Part shown: positions 25,272 to 62,555 of the stretch, one piece after another
Numbering within the stretch: position 1 is the stretch's first letter
Layout of the letters: each line of letters begins with the position of its first letter
Position numbers and translations under genes: made by a program
The notes under the pieces: model-generated
The model's database searches: none
What the model was told of the DNA's origin: nothing
Seen by the model: only the letters and a program-made list of their open reading frames with translations
Assembly (NCBI RefSeq): GCF_964204645.1
Contig: NC_134029.1
Span: 13,046,850-13,110,849 of the forward strand
From: Tubulanus polymorphus
Lineage: Eukaryota; Animalia; Nemertea
DNA length: 64,000 bases
Reading direction: 5' to 3'

Positions 25272-25378
25272 AGCGATCGAAGATAGAATAATTGAGAACA
25301 ATAGAAAAGCGGTCCAGTAGGACCGCTTATTGCGCAATACACAGTTATATATTTATTCTGAAAACTACAACATTCAAC
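25272..25378 (+). repeat. Dispersed repeat with hairpin aagcggtcc-agta-ggaccgctt (other copies 26571-26648 and ~26711-26785)
   Basis: Near-identical aatagaaaagcggtccagtaggaccgcttattgcgcaatac blocks. Confidence 0.8.
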
Positions 25379-26570
25379 AAGAAAATTAATTTTAGAAAAT
25401 TATTTGACGCCTGGGAAAAAAATGTAGAATTTCTGGGCTAAGCTAATGTGGAATTGCAAATTTGAAATCGAAGTTTTAAGAAATTTGGGGAATGATGAGA
25501 TTTGGCGATTGGGTAGATGATACAGGTCTTCGACTCTAGTAGTGGTTTAAATTTTTTTATTGAAAATTCTCAATAATTGATCGCGAACTTGCGACCGACT
25601 TCATTTACTTATGCCTCTAAGCTGGTCTGCAACTTCATTGCCTCCATGGATGAAGAAAGAGCTCTTCTGATGTCTGCTTCATTATGACTTCGAGCATATT
25701 GTGTGGCCTAGCCAGCCGGTCCGGTCCCCGGGCCCGGGCCACGCGTTTGGCTGTCACTCGATTTCCTAGAGTCTTGAGTCTGGGTGGGTTGAAGTAGACA
25801 TTGTCATTTAAAATAACATGCTTATGTTGTTCTGTATGAATTACCCGTGTGTCATATATGTTGTATTAATTTATTTTAAAATTTGTATTTATTGAATTTG
25901 GGAATTTTATCCCGGAATTTCAATGTAATAAGGATCAATAAAGAATTGAATTGAATTGTCACCTAATACACATGCCATCAGAGGACACGGAGCCGTATAT
26001 GACAGCTATGCTATTATAAATTGCTAATCTCACGAAACTTGCATACTCCTAATATCAAACATATTTTCACAAACGATTGAATATTGAAATTATATGTTTA
26101 CACATTTTCATATTAACCGCTTGTAGCCGCTGATGAAATTTACGCCGGCCCTACACACATCGTAGATAGCTTCGTCATTCCACCGGCATGCCCACGTCAG
26201 GGTCTGACTTTTATATCAGACTTCCGCATCGTGTATACATCCGCCATTTAACCGAATAATCCGATTTACTTATCATTTCTATTTATGCCTTCCGCTTCTG
26301 ATATAATCATACATCCTTTACTATTACAATACGTCTTCTAATGATATTCAATGCAATATAACATTTCGACGTTCAAATATAGGTCATTATATAATCACAG
26401 GAAGCCATTCTACATCTATGTCAATAATATTTTGCCAGATAGCTTGTTTGTGTACACATAAACCTGTGACGTTTTGCACATCGATTTACGGCTGTCGTTT
26501 GTAAAATGACGCTGAATGGTTAGCATTGTTTAGGTTTCATAATGGTAACGTTTTATAAGGCGTCAAAAAA

Positions 26571-26785
26571 AATAGAAAAGCGGTCCAGTAGGACCGCTTA
26601 TTGCGCAATACACAGTTACATATTTATTCTGAAAACTACAACATTCAAACACAGAACTTTAACCAATCAATACAGAACAGCGACCTAACCCTAACCCTAA
26701 CCCATCAACAACGATCGAAGATACAACAATTGAGGACAAACGAAAAGTGGTCCAGTAGGACCGCTTATTGCGCAATACAAAGTTA
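26571..26785 (+). repeat. Two copies of the hairpin repeat separated by (CTAACC)3 telomere-like units
   Basis: cctaaccctaaccctaaccc at ~26684-26703 lies between two ggtccagtaggacc hairpins. Confidence 0.75.
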
Positions 26786-27563
26786 ACAGTAACCAATCAT
26801 TACAGAACAGCTGTCACCATTAACAACGACCGAACGACGAATGTACACGCAACTGCAATTCCGGCAAATATCATACATTGGAAGTCTATACAGTATGATA
26901 AAACAGCTTCAGTCTCTTGAGATGAAACATCCATAATTTCTGATTCCACATCCATCTTGACTTTCTTGATTCAATGATCTTCATTCTGGTATCTAAAAGA
27001 TATCTAGCATAGAATATAATTAACTTGAAGTTGAACCAGGTTTATGCTTAAATTAGCAAGTCAAATCATTGCTTGTGAGTTTGAGAAGTGGCCCGCATCT
27101 CACTTTATTACAGCTCGGAGTACTCCATACTCACAGCGCTGTTGTTAAATATAGATTAATACACTTAAACATATTTCAAAGTTTCATATTTAGTAGCCCC
27201 CTTTCCCTACTTCATAATAACTACAAAAAACAGTACTTATATTTAGAACTGTAAACTTTAACTCCGAAATGTGTTTCGAGAGAGAAATGCTATGCGTCCT
27301 GTATATACCGTCTGTTCAGTGTGGGTGCCGCGATCCAGTATGATGTAATGCGTCTGCGGTGTTTCACTATGGCTCAATACATCCAGGCACTGTCTGGTGC
27401 TATGGCAACGCTGGCAACAGGTGTTCTTTTATGATGAAATTATTTAATTCTTTACAATTGAATGCAAGCGTGTGACGGATGTTTTGGTAAACAAACCAGA
27501 GCTATGCAATTGTATACAGGTAGTTATATAGGCCGAGTGTTATCGGGCTCTTATTCTAAGCGT

Positions 27564-28400
27564 TTATAAAGATTCAACGTATTTTTCATTCTGTGGAAGA
27601 CTATTCCATAATTCAACAAATGTCTTTGCTTTATCTAGCTGATATAAATATAACTGTAAATCTAATTTGTCAGATTTAATCATATTTTCCTTCTTTTCAA
27701 GATGTCTTAACCCTTTCAGTGCGTCTACACCGCAGTGCGGTGTATAAATCAGTGATGGATTTTGCTAGTACACCGCACTGCGGTGTATTGATGTAATTAG
27801 TAATTTGTAATTATCTCTATTGAAAAATGGCAGCAAGTGTCAAACATAGTGAAATACTAGTAACTAACGATACACCGCACTGCGGTGTAGACGCACTATA
27901 GTGGTATTCCCATTGTTCAACACACTAGGGTGGAATTTTTTAGAATTTTCAATTTTTCTCCAGCACTAAAGGGTATTAATTAGTCAGCACTGAAAGGGTT
28001 AACCCTTCCAATTCCAAATTAACTTTTTATTGTAATCATCATCCATATCAAATTTAGATATTGGTAACACATGATCAATGTGAAAATAATCTCCGTAATT
28101 ATTTAGATTCATTTTATCGTCAAACATATACAATCCATGATTTTAAGAATTCATCTGAACAACCCAACAAATTAGATAGTGTTTCTGAATGTTTATCTTT
28201 ACTGAATAAATGTGATAATCTAGAACCTAGACATTTTCTCATTTTAAAATCAAAATCTGTTCGGCGCCTTTCTTTTTGACAATATTTATTATACTCATTT
28301 TAATATTCTCTATCATTTGCTTGATATTGCTTAATCATATCTTGGCGTGTTTCAGGATTATTTCTATAATTTTGTTTGTCACTTAGTTTACTACAAGTTT
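27564..28400 (-). pseudogene. HNH endonuclease of the giant-virus (NCLDV) type; frameshifted and MITE-interrupted
   Basis: Manual translation: ERRRTDFDFKMRKCLGSRL..LLGCSDEFLKSWI..FDDKMNLNNYGDYFHIDHVLPISKFD..WNWKGL|RHLEKKENMIKSDK..stop at 27564. Confidence 0.75.
27711..27998. mobile_element. piggyBac-type MITE, 288 bp
   Basis: TTAA target duplication (27707-27710, 27999-28002); CCCTTTCAGTGC TIRs; internal tacaccgca(g/c)tgcggtgta palindromes; removing it restores the HNH frame. Confidence 0.92.
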
Positions 28401-28463
28401 TACAATAACTTTGCTTACCATCTTTCTGAGTTTTATGATTATAATATTCTGATAATGATTAAT

Positions 28464-28842
28464 TTATTTTATACTTCCAGCATTTCTTATAGTATATATG
28501 TATTGTTTGTGATTGTTCCTCCATTTATTATACATATTTTTATTAAAATTGATATACTTATTCCCTTTCTCTAAGTGAGATTTAGTTTTATTATGTCTTG
28601 ATTTTTGAGATTTATCTATATTGATTTTACATTTTGGACAGTAGTAATTCTTACTTGCTTCCATTTTAATATCAAATGTTTTATTAAAATGATTTTAGAA
28701 GTTATTCATATATTAAATATTCATTAATAGAAATATTAAAGTAATTGGTAATGTGTTTGTTCAGGTCAAAGGTTGAGTCGAGGGAGTAGAAAATTAAATT
28801 CGAGCGTGCGAGAATTTATTTTTCTACTCGCTCGACCTCTCG
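28464..28842 (-). mobile_element. Polinton copy 2: partial hairpin (28740-28842) plus 5' end of the zinc-finger/PolB ORF
   Basis: MEASKNYYCPKCKINIDKSQKSRHNKTKSHLEK matches the 14902 ORF; upstream sequence matches ~14715-14900. Confidence 0.85.
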
Positions 28843-29015
28843 AATATCACAAAATTCAACTACATCATCGGACAATTAAAAGGTGTAGCTATTGAAACCG
28901 TCCGGGGACTACACGCCTCGGGGGACAATTTTGAAAACTTAATCGCCACGCTGAAAGAGAGTTACGGGCAACCTCGGAAAATCGTAAGAGCTCACGTGAA
29001 CAATCTGGTCGATAA
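28843..29015 (+). mobile_element. BEL/Pao Gag fragment (DUF1759-like)
   Basis: KFNYIIGQLKGVAIETVRGL..DNFENLIATLKESYGQPRKIVRAHVNNL. Confidence 0.7.
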
Positions 29016-30779: not shown

Positions 30780-31119
30780 GATATATTTTTATCATAATGA
30801 ATTAACTTTGAATTGTGTTTGTGTATCAAATGAAGTATTTAAATTTCCAATTATCGGTGATCTTATTTCAACTTGTGCACCTAAAACACAATTCTAATAG
30901 ATTGATTTATTCGTTGTATACCTGTTTTCGTAAATCCTTCACTATTTTCTTAAATTAAATAAATTATTATTATTATTATTTTTACCATTATAAAATTATC
31001 GGTAATTTCGGTAATTTATTGAAATTCAATATTTTTAAATCTATATTTCTACCAATATTTATAACCTTAAACCTATATTTCTTTCTATTTAACCGTAACC
31101 TAATTTATTATATATATAC

Positions 31120-35765: not shown

Positions 35766-35854
35766 CATTATTAGCTTTTGAATAATTAGGCCAATTGATA
35801 ACGTAATAAAGACTTATGCTTTCGCCTATTTTGAAGTCGATTAATCTGATATAG

Positions 35855-36183
35855 TACGGAAGCGATAAAGGGCCTCGAGTTGTTGCGTTCAAACTCGACA
35901 AGTCGCCATATTTATGTCGATATATCGCGATATATCGTGTCAAGTCCACATGAATATGTCTACATTTCGTGACGTTTTCACGACAAATTGCGCTTATTTG
36001 CTCATTTTCCACGGGACAAGCCGTCAAGGAAAATGGTTGAGAAAACGAAATATGTCGTCAAAACGTCACGATATATCGACATATTCATGTCGACTTGACG
36101 CGATATATCGCGGTATGTTGACAATAATATGGCGACTTGTCGAGTTGGAACGCGTCATCTCGAGGCCCCTTATCGCTTCCGTA
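35855..36183. mobile_element. Palindromic MITE with TACGG...CCGTA termini (IS3EU-like); partial second copy at ~36259-36365
   Basis: tacggaagcgataaagggcctcgag pairs with ctcgaggccccttatcgcttccgta; flanking duplication gatatag. Confidence 0.75.
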
Positions 36184-41800: not shown

Positions 41801-43400
41801 ATTTTGTTTTTATCGCCTGCGACAATTCATTATTTTGGTTTTGTCGCCTGCGACAATTCACCATTTTGGTTTTGTCGCCCGCGACAATTCACCATTTTGG
41901 TTTTGTCACCCGCGACAATTCATTATTTTGGTTTTATCGCCCGCAAAAATTCATTATTTTGGTTTTATCGCCCGCGACAATTCATTATTTTGGTTTTGTC
42001 ACCCGAGACAATTCATTTTTTTGGTTTTATCGCCCGCGACAATTCATTAGTTTGGTTTTGTTGCCCGCGACAATTGAATATTTTGGTTTTGTCGCCCGCG
42101 ACAATTCATTATTTTTGTTTTGTTGCCCCCACAATTCTTTTTTTGGTTTTGTCGCCCGCGACAATTCAATATTTTGGTTTTATCGCCCGGGACAATTCAT
42201 TATTTTGGTTTTATCGCCCGCGACAATTTTTTTCTTTTTGTCGCAGTTTTATCGCCTGCAACACTTCAATATTATGGTTTTATCGCCTGCGACAATTCAT
42301 TATTTTGGTTTTATCGCCCGCGACAATTCATTTTTTTGGTTTTATCGCCCGCGACAATTCATTAGTTTGGTTTTGTTGCCCGCGACAATTGAATATTTTG
42401 GTTTTGTCGCCCGCGACAATTCATTATTTTGGTTTTATCGACCGCAACAATTCATTTTTTTGGTTTTGTCGCTCGCGACAATTCAATATTTTGGTTTTAT
42501 CGCCCACGACAAATCACTGCTTTGGTTTTATCGCCAGCGACAATTCATTATTTTGGTTTTGTCCACCGCGACAATTCTTCTTTTTGGTTTTGTCGCCCGC
42601 GACAATTCATTATTTTGGTTTTGTCGCCTGCGATAATTCACCATTTTGGTTTTGTCGCCCGCGACAATTCACCATTTTGGTTTTGTCACCCGCGACAATT
42701 CATTATTTTGTTTTTATCGCCTGCGACAATTCATTATTTTGGTTTTGTCGCCTGCGACAATTCACCATTTTGGTTTTGTCGCCCGCGACAATTCACCATT
42801 TTGGTTTTGTCACCCGCGACAATTCATTATTTTGGTTTTATCGCCCGCAAAAATTCATTATTTTGGTTTTATCGCCCGCGACAATTCATTATTTTGGTTT
42901 TGTCACCCGAGACAATTCATCATTTTGGTTTTATCGCCTGGACAATTCACCATTTTGGTTTTATCGCCAGCGACAATTCATTATTTTGGTTTTGTCGACC
43001 GCGACAATTCTTCTTTTTGGTTTTGTCACCCGCGACAATTCATTATTTTGGTTTTGTCGACCGCGACAAATCACCATTTTGGTTTTGTCGCCCTCGACAA
43101 TTCACCTTTTTGGTTTTGTCGCCTGGACAATTCACCATTTTGGTTTTGTCGCCCGCGACAATTCATTATTTTTGTTTTGTTGCCCCCACAATTCTTTTTT
43201 TGGTTTTGTCGCCCGCGACAATTCATTATTTTGGTTTTATCGCCTGCGACAATTCAATATTTTGGTTTTATCGCCCGCGATAATTCATTATTTTGGTTTT
43301 ATTGCCCTGTGACAATTTATTATTTTGGTTTTGTCGCACGAGACAATTCATTATTTTGGTTTTATCGCCCGCGACAATTCATTATTTTGGTTTTGCCGCC
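38830..43400 (+). repeat. 31-bp satellite array 2 with higher-order repeats (~1430-bp and ~904-bp periods)
   Basis: Identical variant series offset by 1430 (39254/40684, 40095/41525) and by 904 (41525/42429, 41742/42646). Confidence 0.97.
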
Positions 43401-44403
43401 CAAAGAAAATTTTGAAGACGCTTTGATCAATTACCTTGATGTTTCGTTTATATTTGAATCTACCAAAGGCCCATCAGCATAAGAAAATTGGGTCGATCTG
43501 ACTCAAGATGGCCGTCCTATGACCTTTTTAGTGCCCAAAAATGTCAACTTTGGCCAGAATTCTAGGTCCTGTAGCTTCCTACTGGTTTGCCATTTCTCAT
43601 TGCAATTGCTGATGGATATTCTTTAGAGAGGGATGTTTTATACCTGGGACAGGTATTTTTGATCAGCCAATTATGACGCAATTGGCGGCCATCTTGGTGT
43701 CATCAGTACTCATTCGTAGGTGGGAAAAAGTTTTTCCACAATTAATCGATACCTAAGCATATTGTGTTACTATATTCAATAGGAAAGTTGTAGCCCATAA
43801 CGTGTTCTATGATTTTGGTGAGTTTCAAGGTCATTGATTTTTGTATGTGGCCATCAGGGGGCGTTGAATAATACAATAACTTAGTATCGCTATCTTATAT
43901 TTGTACCAAGGCATATTTTGTTACCATGATCCATTGCAAAGTTGTAGTTCATGACATCGTCTATGATTGTGGTGAGTTTTTAAGGACATTAGTTATTCCA
44001 TATAGTCACCAGGGGGCGCTGAATAGTAGAATGGCTTAGTATTTCCTTATTAGATTGGTACCTAGGCATATTTTGTTACTATGATCAATTGCAAAGTTGT
44101 ATTTCATGACATGTACTACGATTGTGGTGAGTTTTAAGGTCATTGGGTTTTGCATATGGTCACCAGGGGGCGTTGAATAGTAGAATAACTTAGTATTTCC
44201 ATATTAAATTGGTAACGAGGCATATTTTGTTATCACAATCAATTACAAAATCATAGCTGCTCACATTTTCTATGATTGTGGTGGGTTTCAAGGTCATTGG
44301 TTTTTGTATATGGTCACTAGAGGGCGTTATGTATTGAAATTGTTAGATTGTTGAGCATTTGAAACCACTGCCCAAGTGAGCATGGTGTCCCTGGACCCCT
44401 AGT
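43401..44403 (+). mobile_element. 3' part of a second HINE-like family nested in the satellite; contains ~4 x 154-bp tandem units
   Basis: aaagttgta at 43784, 43938 and 44093; ends in a gtcc-ct-ggac hairpin plus ctagtt; satellite resumes at 44404. Confidence 0.6.
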
Positions 44404-44700
44404 TTGGTTTTGTCGCCCGCGACAATTCATTATTTTGGTTTTGTCGCACGCAACAATTCAATAGTTTGTTTTTGTCGTCTGCGACAATTCATTATTTTGG
44501 TTTTATCGCCCGCAACAATTCAATATTTTGGTTTTAACGCCCGCGACAATTCATTATTGTGGTTTTATCGCCCGCGACAATTCATTATTTTGGTTTTATC
44601 GGCCGCGACAATTCATTATTTTTGTTTTGTCGCCCGTGACAATTCAATATTTTGGTTTTCTCACCCGCGACAATTCATAATTTTGGTTTTGTCGCCCGTG
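44404..44700 (+). repeat. 31-bp satellite array 3
   Basis: Same unit as arrays 1 and 2. Confidence 0.95.
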
Positions 44701-45134
44701 GTTTTGTCGGAACATTAAGTTTTTTGTCGAACAGTGTGTTACGGTTGTTTTGGAAATTTACTCGGTCTGGTATATTTTGGATTACTGTGTATGTCATTTG
44801 TCAGGACATTAAACAGAAGACGACTTAGGATACTACCTTGCGTGACTCCACTAGTTAGACCGTCTCACTCCAAGATGAGGCGTTCCGTTGATTTCGGTTA
44901 CAAGTTTCCACGTCTCACTCCAAGATGAGGCGTTCCGTTGATTTCGGTTACAAGTTTCCATTCAGAGATAACTGCTGTGTCATTTGGGCGACCTATCATT
45001 GATACTGTTTCCTAATAGCCTGTTCAGTAATGGCTGATGTTGAGCCTTATCAAATGCTTTGTTGAAATCCACCGTTGAACAGGATTCTAAGACTGTGCAG
45101 AAAACCCGTTATCGCTGCTTTGCAGCCATATTTT

Positions 45135-45870
45135 TTGTTATTATTTCAACATTTATAATTTTATTAGTTTCATTTTCATATATTTCAGTTATTTTTTTAA
45201 TATCATCAATAATAAAATCTTCATCTAATTCATACAATTTTAAAGAATTTATAATTAAATAAGTAATTTTTTCTACATTATTAGTTTCTTTATTTATTGT
45301 TTTTACATAAGTGAATATAATATTTTTAATATACATCATTCATTTCAAATTGCATTTCTTTAAATTCAAAACCAAAACATTTACTCGCCTATACAGTTAT
45401 TTTCATATTTATATTGAAAAAAATTATTCTTTACATCTTATAACTAATTCATAAATTACAGGGAAATCATTTAAATCGATTAAACATCCATTATGATTTC
45501 AAACTTCTAATTCAAAATTATTAAATCGCGGAATACATGGTTTAAAATCACATTCAGCTAAATAAAAATTTATTTGTTTTCCAAATCGTTTAACATTTTT
45601 AATGGTTTTAAAAATTTATTTTCATTTGCTTTGAATGTTTTTAATGGGTCAATTAAATTGCAATAAATATAAAAATTAGTAAAACTCATCATTAAATTTG
45701 ATCTAGAATTAACATTTGAATAAAGTTTATTAGGTGTAATACCTAAAATTTTAGCTAACGGTTTTCTTACTATAAATCTATGTTGTTCATCATTAGCTAA
45801 CTTTATTCTAACTCTATTACTATTATCACTTTTTAAGAATTTAATTCCAAATCCAGCCGATCCAGAATCT
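45135..45870 (-). mobile_element. Polinton-like segment (copy 3, right part) including a penton-like fragment
   Basis: KSDNSNRVRIKLANDEQHRFIVRKPLAKILGITP matches ORF 19254; ORF 45339 continues as KYYEDGN-stop at ~31885 once the HINEs are removed. Confidence 0.7.
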
Positions 45871-45981
45871 AGATTCTGGAATCAACAAATATTCTATGTT
45901 CTTTTAATTCTACATTAATTTACTTTAAAAGATTACCTCAAACCCTACAAAAATAATTTTGATGAAGTTTTTCTTTAATAC

Positions 45982-46510
45982 ATGGATAAGAAGAAACCTT
46001 GTAAAATGTGTGGTGAATTGCAAACTAAAAGTCACATGGCTAGACGCATGAAAAGACATGATGAACCCCTTAAAATAACGTGCCCAAATTGTAATAAAAC
46101 CTTTTCAAAAAATTATTTTTTAAAACATTCAGAAAAATGTAAATTCGATGAATTAATAGTTGATAGTAACGAAAATGATAATAATCCTGGTGAAATTGAA
46201 CCAGATATAATATGGAAAAGACCTTTTTTATTCTATGATAAGAATAATATAAAAAATCATTGCTGCGAGTATTGCCAAATAAAATTTAGTCCTGAAAATA
46301 TAGAAGATTGGGAGAATCATCAATTAAATGGTGCACATTTAAATGAAATTTTTAATAAATCTTAAATAGAATTTAATGAGAGAACAAATAATTTCTTTGA
46401 AAAAATGAAATATGAGAAAACGGCATCAAATAATAAAGAAACACTTGAAATATTTGAAAAACAATATAATGAATAAGTAAGAAAAACATATTATTGTAAA
46501 TATTGTACAT
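45982..46510 (+). pseudogene. C2H2/C2HC zinc-finger ORF, probably Polinton-derived
   Basis: CKMC..HMARRMKRH, CPNC..KHSEKC, CEYC..H..GAH; AT-rich codon usage like the Polinton genes. Confidence 0.5.
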
Positions 46511-46521
46511 TGATTATTATT

Positions 46522-46880
46522 ACAGGGTGTCCCATTAATTACTATACATAAAGAACTGCCTGTCATTTTCAAACCGTTTGAGATAAATCCGCCAAATCTT
46601 CAGGAGGGATGGACTATAACAATACTTTTCACCACACAAAAATTACTTAACTAAAATCCAGTTAGTTTACAAAATATTCTAGATGGGAGAACCTTTCAAT
46701 TTTATCACACGATTCAGTGTATTGTTGAAATTTCTCAGTACGTTGCCAGTCACCAGTGTCATCGCAGATGTTTATCTTTAAATCACCAATAGTCTCTGGT
46801 TTGTTTTGGTACACTGTATTCTTCAGCTGGCAAGTAAAAGTCCACTGGATTTAGGTCACATGAGTATGGGTCCAGTCGTT
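46522..46880 (-). mobile_element. Tc1/mariner 3' fragment with terminal repeat
   Basis: ta|cagggtgtccc terminus; W..YSCDLNPVDFYL..LKNTVYQNKPETIGDLK. Confidence 0.75.
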
Positions 46881-47009
46881 TACAGTTTGCAGCGCAGTGA
46901 TTCTGTCACCGAAATGCCTATGCAGAACATCAATTATTGTGCGTGCTGTAAGACATCGCTCACCAATCCTGCTGGAACCACACTTTGAGACTTCCTCTAG
47001 ATATCTACG

Positions 47010-47870
47010 AAGTTTTGTAATGGAGTACTGGTGTTAAATCTGAACCTCATAATGTACACTTTGGAGTAGCGCAGGGCTCAGTACTTGGCCCTCTACTTTT
47101 TCTCGTATATGTTCTGCCCTTAGGGCAGTTAATACAATTTCACAATATCAATAGGCATGGCTTTGCTGATGATAAGCAGGTGTACAAATTAATAACATCA
47201 ATTCGTGATTCGGGTGCTGTGACATCACAACTTGCAAAGGTGGAATCGTGTCTTGCGGCTGTGTACAATTGGTACACTGCAAACTTCCTGAAGGCCAATG
47301 CCACTAAAACTGAGGTTTTCTTGTTCGGAACCAGCCATGATTAAATTAGTTTCCATAGATCATCTGACAGTTGCTGGCACTCGCGTTGCTCTTAGTACTA
47401 AATCTGTGCGGAATCTTGGTGTCATATTTGACTGTGAGCTCTCTATGAGAGATCATGTTCAATCACTTTTAAGGAGTGGATACTACCACATCAGGAATAT
47501 TGTCATAGTTAGAAAGTACCTTACTACCGATGCTACTAAATCCCTCGTTCAAGCATTAATTTTATCGAGACTGGATTACTGTAATAGTTTATTGTGTGGA
47601 GCCTCTAAGGACCTCATTGATGGTTAACAGAGACTGGAGAATTGTGCAGCACGACTTGTTTGTCTTGTATCGAAGTATGATCACATAACACCAGTTCTTA
47701 ACGACCTTCATTGGCTGCCAGTCAAAGCAAGAATTGAGTTCGAAATTCTTCTAATTACATTTAAAGCATTAACAGGATGTGCACCAGTTTACATCAGTGA
47801 ACTCATTCAGTTATATGCTCCTGCGCGTCAACTACGTTCATCTTCACACCACAGACTTTCTGAACCACCC
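47010..47870 (+). mobile_element. L2-clade LINE reverse transcriptase fragment
   Basis: [50 protein letters not shown]. Confidence 0.92.
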
Positions 47871-48454
47871 GGAGGAGCTCATTTGAACTTTATTACTATG
47901 GAAAACTGCGCTATATAGATAACTATTATTACTATTATTATTATTACTGAATCGGCATCTTATGATAGCCGGCTCCATTCATAGTCGGCATTTCTTTGTT
48001 GTCAAAAAAAGTATAGCCCGATTGTAGGCCCACGGGGATGACCTACTGCATGGTTAATCGAAAGATCACACCTCGTAGACAACAGAGAGCTCACTTGATG
48101 ACATTAAGTGGCTTCTCTGCAATCAAATAGGGATTCTTAAAACCAAAATCTACGGTAAAATTGTTTAAATATCGATATTATAATTCTATTTCATGAACTG
48201 ACAAACAAAAAGAAACAAATTGAGCGAGATGAAATGTGGAATAATATAGAACTTTATTCAAATGAAAAAAATGAAATTGAAGAACCTAAAGAAATTATAG
48301 AAAACGTTTAGCTGAATATTTAGATGAAAACAGTTATTATTTACCTATGAAAACGATATGTTTACGAGTTACTAGTTTAAAAAACCGTTATTATTACATG
48401 AAATATGATCATTTAACAAATACATTTAGCTATGAAACATATTAATAATTAATA

Positions 48455-51400
48455 AGCGCAAGGTAACGTTTTTATTCCATCATCTAAAATATATCTTTTA
48501 TCATCGAACGGATTTAAACTAGATCTTTCAATTTCATATATATACATTTCATGATCTTCAGAACGTAGACAATTCATTTTATGTTTCATTGTTATTGAAT
48601 TATATAATGACTTTATATGATCTTAAAATTCGATGTCTGTCAATCGAATGCTTTGTCATTCCTTTTAACTTTTTAGCCTCATGATCTTTAGTTCTGTAAC
48701 TATACATTTTACTTCTCATTAGAACAAATTCAATTATTATATCACCGCCTTATTCATCTTAAAACGTTCCAGGTCGTTTTTTATTTTCAATACTAAATAA
48801 TTCATGATCTTTTGGATAATTACTAAAATCTAAATGATGTTTTAATATTTTTAAGTCTTTTTTTATGTTATTTGTCTTGATTTTTTTGTAACTGTCAGTA
48901 TTTTTGGCTATTAATGGAAATCCACAAGTAAATGTATCATCTTCACTAGTTAAATCATAAACATAATCTGTTAGATTGGATATTTCAAATAAATCTCTAA
49001 CTTCTTTAGTTAATTCTTTTTCTACATGTGTTAATTGGAATACATTTGGTTTATCTTTTAAATACAAACTAACATATTAAAACCTAATGATGAACATAAT
49101 AAATTTAATAATAAATTTTTTGCCTTTTTGTGCAAATGAAATAGTTTTTTGTTGTGTATTTATTTTCCGGCCATCTGCAGCATAAAATCCAATGAAGTAC
49201 GATTTTCTTAAATTATATTGTGCATTTGATACTTTTCTTTTGTTGATGTATTGCTTTTAACTTTTGCTGGGATAAAGAACTCATCATTATATTTTATAGC
49301 AAAATCTGTAGGGTTATTCACAAGTATTCTATAAACTACTAATGATTTTATATGATCCATGATTCTAAATATTTTATAAGGATAAACTTCTTCACAATAT
49401 TTTTAATTCTTTTTAATAATTTCAAATCTTGATTACATACATACCAACAATATTCAGTGCGTCTAATATATTTTTACACACCTGCTGAACCATCTCCGGT
49501 GAAAAAAACCTTTATCAAAATTTTCTTTTCCTTCAAATGTTTCAGGTTCAATGCGATAGATATTATTATTTATTACATCAAATGACATATGATTCATTCT
49601 TGGGTAGTATCTTCTATGAAATAATTCATCGCCAATTATTATATCAGTTGGTTTGATTTCATCACCATTTTGTTTAATTAAACTAGGGTCTTCTGTAACA
49701 TCTACAAATCCTAACAGTTCTAACTCTGTAAATTTTATTATTTGTTTTATAAGAAATTTTTTGTCAAAACATCCATAAATCCATTTATTTGTATTAATTC
49801 TTTTTCCTCATATGATATGTAAAGTCTTTATTGATTAGGTTTATTGTTTCCAAAATTCTTCTTATCAATATTTCATTATTTTATTTTAATAATATTATAA
49901 TATAATATTAATAATATCAGCTGTGACAGAATCAAATTGTAATATTTCATTATTTTTTCCTCCAAAATGTGGTTGTAAAACACTATAATAGAAATCATAC
50001 ATTAATAATTTTGATATTTCTTAAACAGTTGAACCAATGAATATAGGTTTATTAAATTGCATTGCCATTCTTTTTAATTTCACTGCCGTCAAATAATCAT
50101 CGAATCTTTTATTACGCTAATGTCTTGGGCTTGATTGTAAATGCCTTAATCTTTCAGAATTATATACTAATTCGATATCACTTCTATTTCTAATATTTTC
50201 GCATGTTTTACCATAAAAAAACTATTATCCATTAATTTGAAGAAATCTTTTTTCGAAATCTGTTTTTGATATGGTTCTCTGTTGAGTATTGAAATCTATA
50301 TATTTTTCTAACCATTTCGATTGATTAAATTCATATATCTATGAACTTTCTTTAATTTCATTTCCTGAGTTAAGTAAAATTTTAACATTCTGTAATGAAC
50401 GATAAAATAAAATTTAAAATTTAAAATTTTGTGTAAATATTAATTTTTCTGTAAAAACTTGATCTTTCGGTTTTATTTTTTTTCTGATATTCACTCAAAT
50501 AACTATCATCTACGGTTAAACGTTCTGGGCAATATGGCAAATTTTTAGATTTAAATTTTATTTCATCAGGATATTCTAAATCACTACAAAGAAATAACCA
50601 ATTGGAGCATTATCTTTTAAACTCATATTGCGCTTTCCCAATCAGTTTTAACATCATTTTTAACTTCTGTTAATATACAATTTTTTATATGGTTGATATT
50701 GCATCATTGCCCAACCATATAAACTATTTACATTAATATATAATAATTTATATTCGTCGTTTGCTTTAAAATGTCTTTTTTAAATGTCTTGTGGCAAAAC
50801 CACATTGCCAAGATCAACCAGGACTTGAATAACAATAACAAGGATCAACATAAAAATTATTTGAATTAACGTTAAATTTTCTGTTGGGTGCAAACAACTT
50901 ATAATTGCCCTCAGAAAACAATTGTTGTCTGCATTTTGAACATTTATAATTGCTTTTGATAAAAATCGTAATTTAATATAAGATGATGCTTCAATATCTT
51001 TTTCTGTGGTTAATTTTGAATAATTTGGAAAGATCTTATTACTTTTTGATGTTTTATTTCTTTTTGTATCATACATATTCAAATCTAAAAATATAATTTC
51101 ATTCAATGTTAAACCGAACCTTCGAAATATCTTTCTTCGATATGACGTCTAAATTCATTAAATATTTATTCCAGTTTCTCTTATATTTGTGTTTTCGAAA
51201 TTATTTCTTCGGAATGTGTTTCAATATTATACTCCATTTTTCTTCTGATTTTATAAAACTTACTTTCCGGAAATCCTAATTTTTGGATATTCAACATCTG
51301 TTACAAAATCCATTATTTTTTTCCATTTTTTCAATAACTTAACTATAATCTTCTTTTGTTGTTCCTTTAAAAATCTAAATATTATAGCTGCAAGGCCAAT

Positions 51401-51870
51401 TTTACTACGCAATGTTTCTAAAATTTTGATTGTATCTTTAATTTCTGATGAATCGATATAATTTCTAACATTTTCCGTATAAGGTTTATTTGAAATAGAT
51501 TTAGTTTATTTAATAGATTTCTTTACTTGTTGAGATTTATAATCAGAATATCAGAATATAATCATCTGTTCCTAAAATATTGTTACTTAAATTCTGTTGG
51601 TGTTTCTTTTTATTCGAGATGTCTATGATAATTCCTTTTACTTATAAGTTCATTTTAAATATCGCATTTCATCTCATCCTTTTTCATATTTTGTAATTGT
51701 TCTTTTCTTTCATTGGAATTTTCTGGAGTTTCAAAATCTATAACATTTTTATATGAATTGCAGATTTTTCATGATGAGATTTATTAGATTTATTGATGTA
51801 TTTTTTACAATATGGACAATAAGATCGATTTTTATTAGCATCAATTTTTTTCTGTTTGGTACTCACCGGT
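48455..51870 (-). pseudogene. polB: Polinton copy 4: protein-primed PolB, intein-containing allele, exonuclease region deleted
   Basis: IINVQNADNNCFL, DPCYCYSSPGLSW, YINVNSLYGWAM (motif A), FKLMDN..YGKTCEN (motif B), QFD|intein|TDSY (motif C), DFSNYPK, RSKMYSY. Confidence 0.9.
48900..49930 (-). mobile_element. Intein with LAGLIDADG homing endonuclease inserted in PolB motif C (decayed)
   Basis: N-terminus SVTAD..ILLK; block B KIYRVRT..GFVDVTED(P)SLI..IKP..IGDELFH; GFF.GDGS and FIGFYAADG endonuclease motifs; block F/G YVYDLTSEDDTFTCGFPLIAKN followed by +1 Thr. Confidence 0.9.
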
Positions 51871-53372
51871 GGCGAGTGGTGGCGAGTCGTACTCTCGTAC
51901 TCTGGTTTCAAAACCACATTTTGTAATTACTAGCGTCTCATTTTACTTAGTAGCCACTTGAGAACAAAAAGAAATTAACAATATCGGCTACATTCCAGTA
52001 GTATACAAAACAGTTATCTGAAATAGTCTACCTTTCAATTCAGATGGTTTTCTATAGTAGCTGTTTGATATGGCATGGAAATACTGTCGAAATTAAACTA
52101 GCATTTTTGACGCGTCAAATTCACTTCATTCAAAACGTTATCTCATTTCATTATGCATTTAATAAAGATAGGATGCACAGGGTTTTGAGGGTTTTGAATA
52201 AAGTTAGGTTGAGGGCTCTGTGTAGGTAAAACAATCCAACTGTGTTTGGCTGCCTCGTTGGTCTAGCAGTGTAACTGTGCTAGTGCTTGTAGTTCGAATA
52301 CTGTTCTTATCTCTCTGCTATATTTTCTCTTCAGATTATTTGAGTCGTGGGATTAGTGTGGGATTCTAATCAGAGCAAATTATGGGCAAAATAGTGCCCA
52401 TATATAACAGGAATAATGCCCGTCGGTTATCCTGTGCCCAAAAACTGACCTGATCATAATCAAGATGTCCATTTGTCGAAATCAGCACGTGTGTGCTTTT
52501 ATGGCTCTCTGATTGTTTTCCAACATGAGTCTTCTGCTCGGATACTTTCAGTTCAGCAGTCAACAATATCCTCTAATAGTGTTAAAAAGTTGTAGACATT
52601 GCCATTTGAAAAGACCATCATGATCAACAGTTGTCTACAACAAAGATCAAAAAGATCGGTTCAAAAATAGTGACTTATTGTTGTTTTTTCGACCTTTCAT
52701 GGCGGAAATTGCTAAGTGCTGACGGGGAGCACCGAGTGAATATTAACTCGCGTATGATGAAAGACAGCTAACCCGTTCATACTCCATTCACCTCTCTGGT
52801 ACAACAGTGTATTTTTCCTAAAACGTACCAATAGACCTATGTTAATCGTTTTTTTTCCTCGGGAAAATAGAATTTATCTGTGTATACTCAATACTGATAG
52901 TTTTGCTGCGTAGCTGTGCTAAACTGCAATCCCCTCGTTATAAATTTTCTGAGCGATTAGCTCCAACTGTGCGTCCTTAAATTACTATTTCACGTGATTT
53001 TGTTGTAAACTTAATTCTTCACTGCAAAGTAACCGCAGTGAACCGTAGTAACCGTGATGCGAACGTATTGTGATATCGAGTGAAACACCAGAATAGTTAT
53101 AAATCAAACCAAGGATTGGTAGATAATAAAAGCTAACTATAGTAAACAGGATAATATCCGAAACGTCAGTGAAACAAGAGTCGTAGTAGTTTAAATCACT
53201 ATCGTGGTTTCTTTTATGACAGCACCGTTGGTAATACGACTTAACCCGTATTTGTCTATGTCGGTTTAAAACTAACCACATGAAGTTTCATTACATATAA
53301 GGGATGTATACGAATAGATCAAATTGAAATTTCTCTGCAGATTATAAGATTATCAGGTTTATTCATTTAAAG

Positions 53373-53991
53373 GTGAAGATGTTGTAGTGAACGTGGAAAT
53401 GCCAGCCAGCGATAAAGATGAAGAATTATCGGATTTAAAAGAAAAATTTGAATACCCGGATGTTTCCCACGACGGGAACGGGGTTAATTTTTATCTACGT
53501 CTCGGTGCAGTTGGTAAGAAGCGTTGCTCATAATAATCATTGAATAAAAATCTGCAAAACATATCGTAAGAAACCAGATATGCTTTTCTCTTTAAGGGTT
53601 CGGTCTCGGAACAATGTTATTGGCTGGATTCCGTATATCGGAGCGGTTAGAAAACAGTGTCACATTGGAATGCCGAAGTACATTGTTTCCAATCAATGCT
53701 GCTCTCATGATCATCTTTGTTTTTACTCAGACATTTTTTATATTCAAACACCACCGAGTAAGCATAATGAAGCATTATATATTGACACACGCAGAAAGCC
53801 TACAGACCAGACACCGATAGAATTTTTGATGTTACAGGTCATCATTAATCGACGGAAACCAATCGTTAGACTATGCCTGATGCATCTTTTGGCTACTAAT
53901 CTATCCGTATGGCTATCAGCTGTAACGCATGAAACTGCAGAAGATATTGGCAGGGCGCCACATACCTACAGGCCTAAAATTCACCAAAGAG
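53373..53991 (+). CDS. Otop: Three internal exons (53373-53513, 53597-53757, 53838-53991) of an otopetrin-family proton channel; partial host gene
   Basis: In-phase GT-AG splicing gives SHDGNGVNFYLRLGAVGFGLGTML..C..IFVFTQTFFIFKHHRVIINRRKPIVRLCLMHLLATNLSVWL..HETAEDI, which are otopetrin-family motifs. Confidence 0.8.
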
Positions 53992-54095
53992 GTACATATC
54001 CATATCTAATGATTTCGGTTCCGATCTCAGAGTCTATTTCATCGTTTAATATACATGTATAACGAATTTGGTATGGAGCTTGCGAAGGGCTTATT

Positions 54096-54342
54096 TATGG
54101 TGGCTGATAAGGGCCAAAATGCATTAATTTTTACACGACCTCGATTATAGAAAAACGCAAAACGAAACCTATAGAGCAAAAACGAAAACTTCGTTTTTGC
54201 TACCGCGCAAAGACGAACTTTTCGTTTTTGCTAGGGCGCAAAAAGTGAAGTTTTCGTTTTTGCTCTATAGGTTTCGTTTTGCGTTTTTCAATAATCGAGG
54301 TCGTGTTAAAATTAATGCATTTGGCCCTTATCAGCCACCATA
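54096..54342. mobile_element. Palindromic MITE with TATGG...CCATA termini (IS3EU-like)
   Basis: ~105-bp near-perfect inverted arms starting tatggtggctgataagggcc; flanks cttatt/cttata (5/6 match, consistent with a TSD). Confidence 0.85.
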
Positions 54343-55653: not shown

Positions 55654-58020
55654 AGTAATAGGGTAAGTCTTGTTTCAGGTCAAAGGTCGAAAGGTCGAGC
55701 TCATAAAAAATAAAAATAAATTCTCACACGCTCGAATTTATTTTTATTTTTTACTCACTCAACCTTTCAACCTTTAATCTGAAACAAGACACCCTATTAC
55801 TCTAATAATATTCGAATAGATATGAACATTATATAAATGAATATCATATATATGAAAATATGTATAATAAATGGCGAGTAAACAAATACACAATGAATCC
55901 TTAGCTAGAATTAAAGATACATGTACTACAAATGTCAAATCTGTAGATTATAAATTCAAAAAGTTAACAGAATTAACATAACATATATAATGAAATATTT
56001 AATTACAAATATTGAAACAATTACTTATAGATATGGTAATAAATTAGTTATTCACCTAGAATATGAAGGATTAAAAGGAAATAAATATAAATTCAGAACA
56101 TATTTACCAGATAGATTTCATAGATTATCTAGTGAAGATATCGATGAATTATATTCAAGTGATTTCTATTTCATATATAAAGGTAAGAATGAAAAAGGAT
56201 GTCATGATATAGATTTCGAATAATATAAATCAATTTTAATGAAAAAATTGATATTAGAATGGAAGCAAAAAAGAAGTAATTCTGTCCAACATGTAAAATC
56301 AATACAGATAAATCTCAAAAAGCAAGACATAATAATACTAAATCTCACTTAGGAAATAAATTGAAATTAGAATATAATAATGATATATTAGAAACTAAAT
56401 TAGATGAATTAAAGAAATATATAAATGTGATACATGCAATCAATCATTCAGTAACAAAAGATATTATGAACAACATTTAAAATCTAAAAATCATATAAGA
56501 ATTATCAATAATGATTTTTTAGGTGAAGATTATTTTGATAAAGATATTAATAAGAAATGAAAAGCATAATTTAAACAGTAAAGATAGATTAAACAATAAA
56601 AGACCATACATGGAAGATGTTAGAAATTATATTAATTCATTAGATGATAAAAAAGATATTGAAATAACCGAAGCATTTAAAAGTGATATTGGACCAGCTG
56701 CTATTGAATTTAGATTTTATAAAGGCAAAAAATTAGAAGAAAATAAAAAACATCTAGAAAATATGAAAAATATTATAAAAATAATTACAGACGCAGAATA
56801 TCCTAAAATTAGTAAATCTACTAAAGTAAAATTCATAAAATCTGACGATAAACCAATATATTATATAAATTCTCGTCCACAACATGTCATTTCAAAACAA
56901 CATATAGATGATAGATCAAATAAATGTAATAATGAAATAAAAAGTAAAATAGAAGAGAAATATTTTTGAAGGATATGGTTTAATATTTGATGAAATAATA
57001 TTTATGACGTTACATGTGTACAATACAAAATATGATAAATCAACTAAATCAAAACTATTATATAAAAATAATTTATCATATTATAAATATGATAATATAA
57101 ATGCATTAAGTCATATCAAATTACCATTTAAAACTAATGCTGTTATGAATGTACAAAATGAAGATGATAAATGTTTTTTTATGGTCAATAATTAGTTGCT
57201 TACATCCAACAGAAGATATTACACATAGATTTAGATTAACAAATTATATACCATTTAAAAATAATTATAAGATAGATAATTATCCTGTTAAAATCAAATG
57301 TATTCCAAAAATAGAGAGAGATAAAGAGATAATAGAAAATAGAGAAAAGAGATAATAATCTAAAAATAATGTATTGGATTTAATCAAAATACCAAAAACA
57401 ACAGGTAATAATATTAAACATTATACATTAGAACCTTTGTATTCATCAAAAGATTATGATTCAAATGGTGTTATAGATATGTTATATTATGAGAATCATT
57501 ATATGTGGATAAAACAAATTGATTTATTTTTTAAATCAGAAAATGATTATACTCGTAAAATATATCTATGTAAAAATGTATAATCAAATTCAGTACTGAA
57601 AGTGCATTATTAAATCATAAACAATCGTGATAATCGTGATTATAGTAAATTAATTTTACCAAATAAAAAAGATAAAATAGTAGAATTAAAAAATATGATT
57701 ACAAGAATAAAGTACCATTTGTATTGTATGATTTTGAATCATTAAATAAGGAATTAACTGATCAAGATAGAAAAAGAATATTGGAAGAAAGAAATTAAAT
57801 TCTAATGAAAATGATTTTTCAGAAGAACCACCAATAACAAATACATTTGAAAAAATCCATCAGAGTGCTGCAGCTTTTGGATTATATGTAAAATCAGATT
57901 ATCCAGAACTAATTAAAAGTGAATATCATTATTATAGAAAATGTTATCAATCATTTTTATGACTTATTAATGAAATTCAATGAATTATTAGATACAAATA
58001 CAGAAATAATAATGACTGAA
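55654..58020 (+). mobile_element. Polinton copy 5: hairpin (55654-55801), small gene (55872-56223), 5' part of zinc-finger/PolB (56259-58020); truncated at the BEL element
   Basis: Co-linear homology to ~14902-16660 and 18522-18874. Confidence 0.9.
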
Positions 58021-61000
58021 TAAAATTTCCGATAACTCGAGGAGATGGTAAATCAGCCATCAACGGAATGGAATTAGGACTAGCAAACGAACGCAACACA
58101 AAGCTTTACAGGACCGGCGAACTGAGAGAGCCATGACGCGAGCATTTATAGGCCAATACCGCTGGCGGACCTCAGCTACTATTTGCTCAGGACCGCAATG
58201 CGCCAAATACTCGTGTATACTGGAAAGAATCAATCTAGTAACGTGATGATCATAAGGCAGAAGAATGTGATGCTTAGTTTCGGACGGAATTTCGGCTTTA
58301 GGCAGACGACTACCTACTCTGATAAACGAACCATCAAAGAATGGCGTAAACGGCCGCAGAGAACGTTGAAAGTGACCTCAACTTTAAAGAGGCAATGTCA
58401 CTAGCGAACATTTGCGACTGTGCAAATCTCATAAGGCAGTCCTCGGCCGCTCTCATCTGGACGGCAAAAAATATATACACGGCGCACCTACAGGTTTCCC
58501 AATGCGGCGACCAGCCAATTTCCTAACAGCACGTAAAACGACGTGACGCTTTAACTCATACCAACTAGAGAACCTCTCCTTATCAACAATTTCACTAAGA
58601 TCCAAATCAGATAATGATTTAGGGTGAACTGTAGGAATGTGAACACACGTTTGAACATTTACGTGTTTACGAATATTCTAATCGTTTTCAGAAACAGAAC
58701 CTGATATGATACTTTGATCTAGCCAACAACCGTCCCCATTTAAAAACATTGGACCGTTAACCCAGGACCGAGAACTGATAAGATCACGAATGGAAAGTCC
58801 ACGAGTACAAACATCTGCAGGATTTATCTCCGATGGAACGTATTTCCACTGAACAGGGGACGAACAACTGTGAATCTTCGACGAACGATTAGAGACAAAC
58901 GTTTTAAACCTAGTATCGGAATTGTTGATGTATCTCAGCACAGTCGTGGAATCTGACCAGTAAAAGACACTACCAGCAGTCAAACTGGACAACTCATTTT
59001 TTAAAAGTTTACATAATCAAGTGGATAAAAGTGCTCCCTCTAATTCCAACTAAGGGATAGTAACGACTTGCTTAATTGGCGCAACATGAGACTTAGCGGC
59101 AATAAACGAACAACCTACTTCATCATTGACACTAAATCGCAAATGAATTACAGAAGCATAACCACGCTCAGAGGCGTCCGAAAACAAACGGATCAAAGAT
59201 GGAAGGGACTACACTCAACACACAACGCTTTGTGGGGGGGGGGTCCCTCCCTTCTGACGAGTCTAAAAACAAAACTATCTGACTCTACACTCCACTTAAT
59301 ACCTAATGCTCTTTCAACAGGAAGTTCATCCAGGAAAATATCTAACTTTGGATTTGCGCGCTCAGACTTATCAATCCGCGAAATAATCTTCCTATCATTT
59401 GACAGCCATTTGGCTATATGAAATCCGCCCTTTTCCAAAATCCGATTTACCTCATCAACCAAAGACAAAGCAATTCCAGCGTCCACTAAAGATTTGAGCA
59501 AATCATCGACATAGAAATCATGTAAGACAGTTTGCGTACATAATGAACTAAAATCACCAATATTGTCGTAAGCACAGCGCCTTAAAGCGTAATTTGCACA
59601 GCAAGGACTATTTTTGGCTCCAAAAATATGCACAACCATTTTTGTAAATATCCGGAGGTCTATCATTGTTTAAATCATCCTGTCAGAGAAACCTAAGACT
59701 ATTGGAATCAGGTACCCGAACCTGATGAAACATAGCTTCGATGTCCGAAACTATAGAAACCTCGTACAACCTAAATCGCTGCAACACTCCAAATAGAGAA
59801 TTAAGAAGATCTGGACCGTTCATCAACAGACTATTTAGAGAAATACCATTGCAAGTAGCAGCTGCATCAAACACGACACGGGCTTAGGCTTATTAGGATT
59901 TATCACACAGTGGTGAGGAAGGTACCAAGTTTTAGGACCTACTGCAGCGATCTCCTGAGGAGTTAACTTACGAGCAAAATCCTCGACCGAATCGCCCAAC
60001 TTAGGATCATGTAAACCAGATGATTCGAAGTTCCAAAATCTCTCTACCTGCGCATGAAGATCACTCTCCTCATTGACGACAGTATTTACCCTAGGAATAT
60101 AATTAACAGACGAAGGATCATTCACGACAGAACAACCAAACAAACGCCAACAAAGCTAAGGAGTCAACAAAGCAAAGGGCTGAGAATCATCATCACTGGT
60201 TCGAACATCCTGGATATGGGCTTTAGGAACGTTTGCACCAATCAAAAGTCTTGCCATAGAAGAGTTAACTTCGGACAACGAAATGCCTTTAGGTGAGGGT
60301 AATCAAGATCAGTGATTTGAGCGGGACAATAGAGCCCTCCTGTGAGTCCATGCCTTTACCTCTATGGGACTCGAATTCGGATCGCAACCACGAACTCTGA
60401 ATGACACGAACTGCGATGTTTCCCTTTTATTAGAACCCAATGTTTTGATTTTCAGCGTACGACGCTTACCTTTTAGCCCAAGATCACAGGCTAATTCGCA
60501 ATCAACCAAACTTACATCACTCGCCGAATCCAACATGGCATAAGATTCTATGATTCGGCCATTATAACCATGTATCACAACTGGGAGCAGTTGAAAATTT
60601 ACTTTCATATTGACCTCACTTGAATATGTGTTACTTTTTACGGTAGAAATATCATTTTCACCACTTTGGCTATCTGTAATTAACGACTGGGGTTGCGACT
60701 GTTCGGACCTCGAAGACCAACTACGATGGAGGGTGGAATGATGCTTCTTTCCACATGACGGCTCTTTGCATGTTGCTTGCGACGGAAAACTTACAATACG
60801 ATGACCTGGATAAAGACAATTAATACATAGATAAGCACTCTTGACAAAATTAAAGCGACCCATAACACTCTTTTCTAAATAACATTTGCACCTAGATAAG
60901 AGATGAGGCGATTGGTGACAAAACGAACAAGATCTAGAACCAGACTTAAGGTCTGTCTCTTTTCTAGACACTACAGTATTCATACTACTATTCGACAGTC

Positions 61001-62555
61001 CAGAGTTACTACTACGCTTCTTGCAAGGAATGGCAAACGGACCGAAGTCAGAGTCTACAAAATCTCGTAACCAGTTCATCATATCCATTAATGAGGGTTG
61101 ACGCATTCGTCTTACATAATCATTCCACTTACTACGTTTTTCCATGGGTATTCTACGAGAAGCACGTTGAACAACTTCACTACTTCCCAATTCGTACCAA
61201 TAACCAAGACGATTCAAAGTAGTTACGCAATCCCTTACGGAGATATAGAACTCCCGCATGGCAAGTGGGTCATAAGGATTTGACTCCCATTGACTAAAGC
61301 GTCAATATGCGCCCGTGCTATATGAATTCTATGGCCCAACGCAAACTTAAGCTCCTTGAGACACTGAGCGTAATTAAGTGAACTAAAACTAAGGCCCTCA
61401 ATTTATCTCTTAGTTTCGCCCTTGACATTGATTCCAGGAGGAGAATGGACCTGTGAATGGAACTGTTCTATGTATTTTGGCCACATAATCGGTGAACCAT
61501 CAAATACGAGAATCTCAATTTTCGGCAAGTCTCTATCAACGATAAGCTTTGACATTCTGAATTCAAAACTTACTTTGGGTGCCGGTGGCAGGATCGTCTC
61601 TATGCCTCATCTATCTAGGCGTCGAATTCTACAGACTGCTGCAGTTGATCACGTGTATCCGCCCTGGCTTCCACAGACTGCCGCGGTTGAGAACTAGGTG
61701 AATCCGGATTAACTTCTGTAGGTAACTATGTCGGTGTAAACTCCCCTGCATTCGCATTCAGCGACGACGACGGTGATCTAAATACACAAGTTTTCTCTAA
61801 CAACTCCACAGCGTCAGTAACTCTCTGCTGATAATCATCAAGCCAAGCTTCTTCGACTTCCGCATCGACGTCCAATCCTGCGGCCAGCAAATACTGCGAA
61901 TTGGCTGACTACAAAGTTTCAAACTGCGATAAGATTCTACTTCACAGAATAGGTGCGGCTATAGCAGATGAGTCAGCAACCTTAGCTAGATTCCGAGTGA
62001 ACCAGCCAGCATAACTGGACCTTGATTTTTTCAGACTTACTACCGACGACATGTAATTGGCGGTAAATTTGAACTCTTTGTCCGAGGACGAATCCAAAAG
62101 CCAACGACGGAATACGCGGACAATTTTTACTGGTTTATTAGAATATAACCGTTAACTGCAATAATAATTACAAACATTAAGGTTTACAGAATATTGTTGT
62201 GATTATCAAAAATCAATTAAATTGGACGGAAACAGAGGAAAACCAACCAACTTACATTTTACTCCGCTTCTTCGCGTAACGCAACACTGCAGTGACCAAA
62301 ACTCACGCAGTCACAAACCCAACTGAACAGAAATGCACGTACATAATATTAAACCCGCAAATAATCAAATCGTGCAATCAAAAACACAGCAGCGAAAAGA
62401 AACATAATAATACCAAAGCTCTGAAGCAACCAACAAACCCAACGGTCCAAAACACTGGGGACGGAACAATGGCTGCGGCGCAAAGGACTGTGGGTGAACT
62501 TAAGTCTCGGCAATGTTTGCGTTCGAATCCCACACAAGATTTTTATCGCGTGACA
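58021..62555 (-). mobile_element. BEL/Pao LTR retrotransposon: 5' LTR (~62555-62131) plus decayed gag-pol (ATG at 62052), 3'-truncated within the integrase
   Basis: Gag zinc knuckles (CSFC..H..C, CINC..GH, CGKKHHSTLH), protease [30 protein letters not shown], RNase H FSDASERGY/WSDS/NPAD, PLMADLP at the break. Confidence 0.92.

Follow-up and report, generated by a model that had tools for sequence, protein, structure and literature searches.

In this study, we revisited an insertion in the DNA polymerase gene of a Polinton remnant that lies in a 64-kb stretch of DNA (the window, meaning the whole stretch analysed). Our comparisons suggest that the insertion is a dead pol-c intein whose relatives in other polymerases are predicted to splice and have likely spread by LAGLIDADG homing; we place the probability of this reading at about 85%. 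That the insert itself is a degenerate intein is, judged from its sequence, close to certain. The original prediction for this DNA was that of a homing intein of the LAGLIDADG type, inserted at the pol-c position of a Polinton-type, protein-primed polymerase (pPolB), and the insertion site, the domains found in relatives and the alignment with one of them, P0125, all support it. Apparently, the window copy is one member of an undescribed pPolB intein lineage that has intact, polymorphic alleles elsewhere.

The insert, a decayed Hint and LAGLIDADG intein of approximately 343 codons, occupies 48900..49930 on the minus strand. Read along this strand, the polymerase runs to NEILQFD, the insert begins with a Ser codon at 49930 (SVTAD) and ends at 48900 with YVYDLTSEDDTFTCGFPLIAKN, and a Thr codon follows at 48899; in the protein, CGFPLIAKN is followed by the C-extein TDSYKK...DFSNYPK, and polymerase motif C is split exactly at FD|TDS. 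The broken N-extein remnant of this polymerase, copy B, was traced by alignment to 49931..51500 (minus strand) and the equally broken C-extein, which starts with TDS, to 48440..48899 (minus strand); the stretch matching P0125 residues ~261-846 is missing, with the loss at ~50880. Both exteins are 53-58% identical to P0125, which belongs to PF03175 (E 5e-17), and the intein-bearing polymerase is by this relationship classed as a protein-primed PolB. The window also contains a decayed but intein-free pPolB, copy A (15414..18400, plus strand), with an empty site between 18004 and 18005. When the window was compared with itself by blastn, 17365-18004 matched 50602-49931 (70% identity) and 18003-18357 matched 48901-48552 (72% identity); since the blocks end at 49931 and resume at 48901, the alignment gap corresponds exactly to the insert. 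The expectation that its removal would restore an FD-TDS junction alignable to copy A was therefore borne out.

The conserved intein blocks can be followed along the minus strand. Block A starts with Ser1 (SVTAD..., 49907..49930), and Ser is the first residue in 104 of the 105 inteins compared, the window copy included. The T-x-x-H position of block B (VDVTEDPSL, 49685..49696) reads T-E-D-P; the motif is kept across the intein family, with His in 103/104 database inteins, and the Pro of the window copy agrees with the earlier suggestion that this His is mutated. Both LAGLIDADG-type motifs are recognisable, GFF.GDGS at 49486..49520, with a frameshift within it, and YFIGFYAADG at 49170..49199, so that these two motifs and block B are present as described before, according to the sequence and its alignment to P0125. 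Blocks F and G (DYVYDL...CGFPLIAKN) together with the Thr at +1 of the C-extein lie at 48897..48968, again on the basis of sequence and the P0125 alignment. The residues of a class 1 intein, namely Ser1, the terminal Asn (KN) and Thr at +1, are the same in the relatives, and Lys instead of His at the penultimate position is the majority state (81/105 inteins).

This copy is a pseudogene relic. The insert, at 1031 bp, is no multiple of three and is out of frame with the polymerase, whereas the inserts of P0124 and P0125 are in frame; a frameshift-aware alignment gives ~9 frameshifts and 3 stops, in line with the earlier statement that this copy is pseudogenised. Frame breaks are equally dense in the intein (12/337) and in the exteins (12/357), and the divergence from P0125 is alike in both (intein 57% and extein 55% identical), which argues that the intein was in place before copy B died. 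From these counts the window copy appears to have decayed together with its polymerase.

When the insert was read with an X at each frame break or stop, it could be aligned end to end with the intact 354-aa insert of P0125, with 193 of 337 residues identical (57%). The score of this alignment is 750, compared with -155 to -192 for 5/5 shuffles, and a chance match is ruled out, as all shuffles fall below zero. A custom profile made from 104 natural inteins, the window sequence excluded, was run on the six frames of the 64-kb window; all significant matches fell inside 48900-49711, with i-E values from 1e-26 to 5e-7, against a best value of 0.96 in the rest of the window. With a profile restricted to the inteins of RNA-primed PolBs, the X read-through reaches E 5e-69. 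Pfam reported 0 families for three single frames of the insert, because the insert is frameshifted, and NCBIfam gave no intein match for two window pieces; direct Pfam and NCBIfam intein matches hence come from intact relatives and not from the window copy. A search with the stop-free C-junction piece yielded one protein among 301 candidates, P0001, which aligns over the window exteins and insert (E 3e-66), has junctions YMD|SVT...HN|TDS and contains Intein_splicing, LAGLIDADG_3 and Hom_end above the Pfam cut-off. Intein_splicing (PF14890) and LAGLIDADG_3 are likewise above cut-off in P0005, P0006 and P0124; Intein_splicing stays below its curated cut-off in P0008 and P0125-P0129, and TIGR01445 is above cut-off in two of the six database proteins scanned. 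The anticipated Hint and LAGLIDADG profile matches were thus obtained for intact relatives and, through the custom profile, for the window, but not for the window's own single frames. Two other kinds of insert were considered and rejected: a Hedgehog-type Hint domain on account of the endonuclease motifs, the Asn terminus and the existence of empty alleles, and a spliceosomal intron because the insert is protein-coding from end to end.

Structure prediction was informative for one relative. An AlphaFold model of P0003, built with a 100-row alignment, has pLDDT values of 84-98 over the intein blocks, apart from a single loop at 58 and the final block at 78; the extein ends are modelled poorly because this alignment mixes unrelated flanks. 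The top PDB matches of the model in Foldseek are the TliVMA intein, PI-PfuI, PI-SceI and I-DmoI (7qsu with E 7e-15, 2cw7, 1dq3), with a TM of 0.76 for I-DmoI. The predicted fold of the P0003 intein, a model of a relative and not of the window copy, resembles that of PI-PfuI/PI-SceI-type homing inteins. In a viral fold library, the top match of the same model was a phycodnavirus PolB fragment, and PolBs of MELD-viruses and adintoviruses were also listed. A single-sequence model of the P0125 intein reached a pLDDT of 40. At the sequence level, a PDB search with P0001 gave NEQ068 as the best match (E 0.074, below significance), and a PDB profile search with a mixed alignment gave polymerases in all 60 of the matches listed.

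The relatives with P numbers are database proteins and were compared as protein sequences. An intein is present at the same site in the pPolBs P0003, P0124, P0125, P0126/P0128 and P0127, and as read from the alignments intact inteins occupy the D|TDS site in at least five pPolB groups; P0124 (1537 aa), P0125, P0126 and P0127 are intact full-length precursors. A search with P0003 gave 2389 matches, of which the best 120 were listed, and the intein was matched by 12 of the 123 proteins gathered; a junction pattern sorted the gathered proteins into 11 intein-bearing, 91 empty and 21 unclear, the last mostly with variant empty sites. When proteins of 610-2000 aa were searched with the intein, 155 matches were found, and a manual count of the best 120 of these 155 gave 14 pPolBs, ~100 RNA-primed PolBs, 4 type II topoisomerases and 1 other enzyme; PolB matches with readable junctions carry the intein at D|TD. 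One RNA-primed PolB matches a giant-virus metagenome-assembled (MAG) contig at 93%, and the others are presumed to be of giant-virus type. An unindexed search gave 2116 intein relatives, and among the best 150 of these 144 were new, 118 with RNA-primed PolB flanks, 5 with topoisomerase and 3 with pPolB flanks; the remainder comprised 12 fragments whose closest inteins are those of pPolBs and 6 sequences with no assignment. Some relatives additionally carry an Endonuclease_7 domain. Scans of viral contigs with the window piece, P0125 and P0127 gave no match, as did a metagenome scan with P0125 and a blastn search of phages; with P0001 two viral pPolB loci were found, both intein-free, and with the P0003 intein one phage-like locus. 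A junction-pattern scan added three metagenome loci and one viral locus, of which only L006 is a pPolB, the others being giant-virus-type PolBs. L006 is a 4.2-kb contig with an intein-bearing pPolB of the window's family and a single frame break in the endonuclease part. At L003 (3351-10142), separate ORFs break up the intein of a phage-like PolB; one of these ORFs has repeated HNH-like units, and the intein is possibly split or intron-invaded. Related inteins were also seen at D|TD sites of P0200, P0210, P0212, P0213 and P0226, which are type II topoisomerases and a member of the ADP-ribosylglycohydrolase family, and shortened giant-virus-type inteins of 218-270 aa in P0215, P0217, P0227, P0229, P0234 and P0236; the shortened forms are consistent with endonuclease decay in a homing cycle.

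Separate intein and extein trees, which had been recommended earlier, were run. In an intein tree of 45 rows, a subset of the 105 inteins, 8/8 pPolB inteins lie together to one side of a single branch (92/83), the window intein pairs with P0125 (100/94), and the pPolB inteins adjoin a long-branch group that we labelled, with some doubt, phage-type. Without this group, 7/7 pPolB inteins group together (SH-aLRT 100), and their joining with the giant-virus set of inteins ending in GFPL has a support of 29. The pPolB inteins are 35-50% identical to giant-virus-type inteins and their exteins 17-29%; kinship with the giant-virus pol-c inteins is concluded because inteins 35-50% identical sit between exteins 17-27% identical. 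Taken from these trees and identities, the pPolB inteins form one lineage, with giant-virus PolB pol-c inteins as its nearest other relatives, and the claim that, outside Polintons, the window intein is closest to PolB inteins of giant-virus type, inserted at D|TDS too, has held. Of the giant-virus origin that had also been proposed, the kinship stands and the one-off jump into the window element does not, as this intein belongs to a pPolB-specific lineage. Such a recent transfer from a co-infecting giant virus would account for the ~100 RNA-primed PolBs with an intein at the same site among the best 120 long-protein matches, for the one of these that matches the giant-virus contig at 93%, and for inteins that are 35-38% identical where the exteins are 20-23%. 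However, the nearest intein to the window copy is a pPolB intein (100/94), and the pPolB inteins are not nested in the giant-virus inteins, so that we consider this scenario very improbable and, for the window copy, largely refuted; a recent direct giant-virus donor was rejected on tree position. For the same lack of nesting, an ancient transfer between pPolB and giant-virus inteins may have taken place in either direction.

The signs of homing come from intein-bearing and empty alleles. Of 15 listed members of the P0124 cluster (136 members, 40 read), 7 bear the intein and 6 have an empty site, while the sequences of the other 2 do not extend over it. Four full-length empty alleles are 97-98% identical to the P0124 extein, and in the two empty alleles tested 8/26 and 8/22 of the differences lie no more than 10 residues from the site (binomial p ~1e-8, a value that overstates the effect because related sequences are not independent). 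All 6 empties in this cluster have an altered site (YFD-TDA, YTD-CDS or YGD-TDA). Within the P0003 family, 7/10 intein-bearing and 1/85 empty alleles have Cys at -5, a possible marker of co-conversion, and 39/85 empty alleles keep the unaltered protein-level site, which argues that homing in this family is incomplete or slow. The clustering of differences at the site could instead reflect recombination between families. In a quick extein tree of 31 hand-chosen rows (11 intein-bearing, 20 empty) that carries long-branch warnings, intein status needs 9 changes against a shuffled mean of 9.3; intein-bearing and empty alleles thus appear intermingled across the polymerase tree, a distribution expected under homing. 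Alternatively, an intein might have entered the pPolBs once and been inherited vertically, with splicing kept, homing lost and empty alleles arising by precise loss or recombination. The single lineage of the pPolB inteins and the near-equal divergence of intein (57%) and extein (55%) between the window copy and P0125 would be consistent with this. We nevertheless regard it as unlikely, given that both LAGLIDADG motifs are retained in all seven pPolB inteins shown, that differences between near-identical alleles cluster at the site, and that P0127 combines a very distant extein with an intein inside the lineage. Around the site, the P0127 polymerase is 22-29% alike to other pPolBs and its intein 42-49% alike to theirs; by motif, P0127 also has a VSR-like insert, and its intein is a candidate for transfer from one of the two main classes of Polinton polymerase to the other.

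In inteins, an N-O acyl shift at Ser1 is followed by attack of Thr at +1 and by Asn cyclisation, and the exteins are rejoined. Based on this standard chemistry, we propose that in the intact relatives the acyl shift at Ser1 would be assisted by block B, and that transfer to Thr+1 and Asn cyclisation would then restore YxD-TDS, so that the polymerase would be functional only after splicing. From the allele pattern, spread by cleavage and repair is deduced: the LAGLIDADG endonuclease would cut intein-free polymerase genes, and repair from a full allele would copy the intein. Such repair, which would co-convert the flanks, could take place between viral genomes that replicate together or between the many integrated copies of a single nucleus. 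The lineage is old within the pPolBs, shares ancestry with giant-virus PolB inteins and has probably crossed from one distant pPolB class to another.

The Mimivirus PolB intein has 351 aa, a first Ser, a last Asn and Thr at +1 at YGD|TDS (Ogata et al. 2005, PMC549080), and the earlier statement that it shares the pol-c site and a similar length was correct. Like this and other giant-virus and archaeal pol-c inteins (PMC549080), the family of the window intein combines the YxD|TDS site and ~350 aa with Ser1, terminal Asn, Thr+1, block B Thr/His and LAGLIDADG motifs; unlike them, the window intein sits in a protein-primed polymerase (PF03175) of an integrating element, likely on an animal chromosome, and the pPolB inteins are a lineage separate from those of giant viruses. 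Protein-primed polymerases thereby join the hosts of pol-c inteins. Viral PolB inteins have been listed for Phycodnaviridae, Iridoviridae, Mimiviridae and unclassified viruses (PMC5784728). Invertebrate iridoviruses also provide inteins in DNA viruses of animals (PMC549080; reference list of PMC5784728), among them the glutamine-type intein of Chilo iridovirus (PMC549080), but these are large lytic viruses, whereas the window intein rides a chromosomally integrated multi-copy element. HNH and VSR nuclease insertions have been reported in Polinton pPolB2 (Jeong et al. 2023, PMC10748475) and speculatively read as intein invasions or relics (Krupovic et al. 2024, PMC11071308). They too place an endonuclease domain inside a Polinton polymerase; in contrast to them, the inserts described here have a full splicing domain and both junctions, interrupt motif C and have empty alleles, which gives substance to that speculation. 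In the accessible portions of these sources, intein, LAGLIDADG and Hint have 0 occurrences in Jeong et al. (PMC10748475), intein has 0 occurrences in Starrett et al. (2021, PMC8502044), and a Hint-LAGLIDADG intein in a Polinton polymerase is absent from passages of PMC12220804, PMC11131425, PMC5718144, PMC3671162 and 10.64898/2026.10.13.758929. None was described in the full-text literature searched, and Repbase, Dfam, InBase or supplements could hold one. According to the available text of two reviews (PMC5784728, PMC8529194), metazoan genomes lack inteins, in accordance with the earlier remark that they are no recognised part of animal nuclear genes, and it is on this lack that the argument for targeting inteins with antimicrobials is built. 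The window intein probably resides on an animal chromosome and seems to be present in many copies; its carrier is a virus-like element rather than a host gene.

The intein-bearing remnant, element B, extends approximately over 45030..52000 (minus strand), as judged from composition and tblastx to element A. Element A (14720..28843) is a Polinton with terminal inverted repeats (14720-15000 and 28566-28843, 91%), an rve integrase (23351-24052, minus strand, Pfam E 1.3e-9) and a capsid-like ORF (21056-22333, plus strand), the last a lead only, its language-model neighbours including clusters with 13-18% capsid Pfam. With its pPolB, integrase, repeats and capsid-like ORF, element A resembles Polintons, Mavericks and adintoviruses as characterized, in the portion available, by Starrett et al. 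(PMC8502044). Element B differs from typical members in being a deleted remnant, in which the rve integrase and terminal inverted repeats were not found, and in the window frames scanned no packaging ATPase or protease was matched. A decayed non-LTR retrotransposon reverse transcriptase (47021..47918, plus strand; Pfam RVT_1 E 2.6e-6, below cut-off) is inserted inside element B, which argues that the element is chromosomally resident. Pieces of an otopetrin gene, which belongs to the host, lie at 53596..54212 (plus strand; two frames score above the PF03189 cut-off), 1.6 kb from element B, and we take otopetrin and the DUF5641 retroelement protein in the window to be animal markers. The earlier claim of an intein within an animal-genome Polinton polymerase is likely correct in view of these otopetrin pieces and retroelements. 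Contig depth was taken from three sets (X1, X2, X3), of which X1 may be the one the window derives from, and summed depth in them does not equal copy number. Three bins inside the intein, compared with the lowest flank bins, gave 5,310-12,486 versus ~50-100 in X1, 196-425 versus 7-28 in X2 and 48-160 versus 3-10 in X3, which points to a multi-copy family. A 469-bp contig matches the intein interior with one difference, and a contig that leaves out 48835-49960 hints weakly at an empty allele. All three sets come from one study, which leaves some room for the DNA being that of a protist symbiont, a free virus or a misassembly around a real intein. This we find quite unlikely, in view of the otopetrin pieces, the DUF5641 protein, the LINE inside the element and a contig of single-copy depth that matches 51902-52368, the approximate right end of element B, with 0 differences; the intein likely sits in an animal chromosome.

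At slightly short of even odds, we would extend these findings to the view that active homing inteins circulate among Polinton and adintovirus polymerases in animal nuclear genomes and convert empty alleles without sex or co-infection, that the DTDA and DCDS empties are escape variants, and that through past transfer the intein connects animal Polintons with the polymerases of giant viruses. Full and empty alleles at 97-98% identity provide a natural test of homing in a multi-copy family and of how a target site within a catalytic motif may escape it, and shared inteins are a trace of earlier contact of Polintons with giant viruses. Several minor features of the window should also be recorded. 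Remnants of LTR retrotransposons at 29877-30788 and 58060-61301 contain DUF5641, presumably a BEL/Pao marker, an integrase zinc-binding domain and a weak aspartyl protease. Large arrays of a 31-bp satellite (33357-44700) lie in a duplicated block (32011-35779 versus 37494-41237, 88%) and have very high depth. A third element fragment begins at ~55650 with a polymerase N-terminus 83% identical to that of element A, and a hairpin-forming palindrome of ~130 bp is found at Polinton ends (14689-14821, 28700-28843 and 55667-55790).
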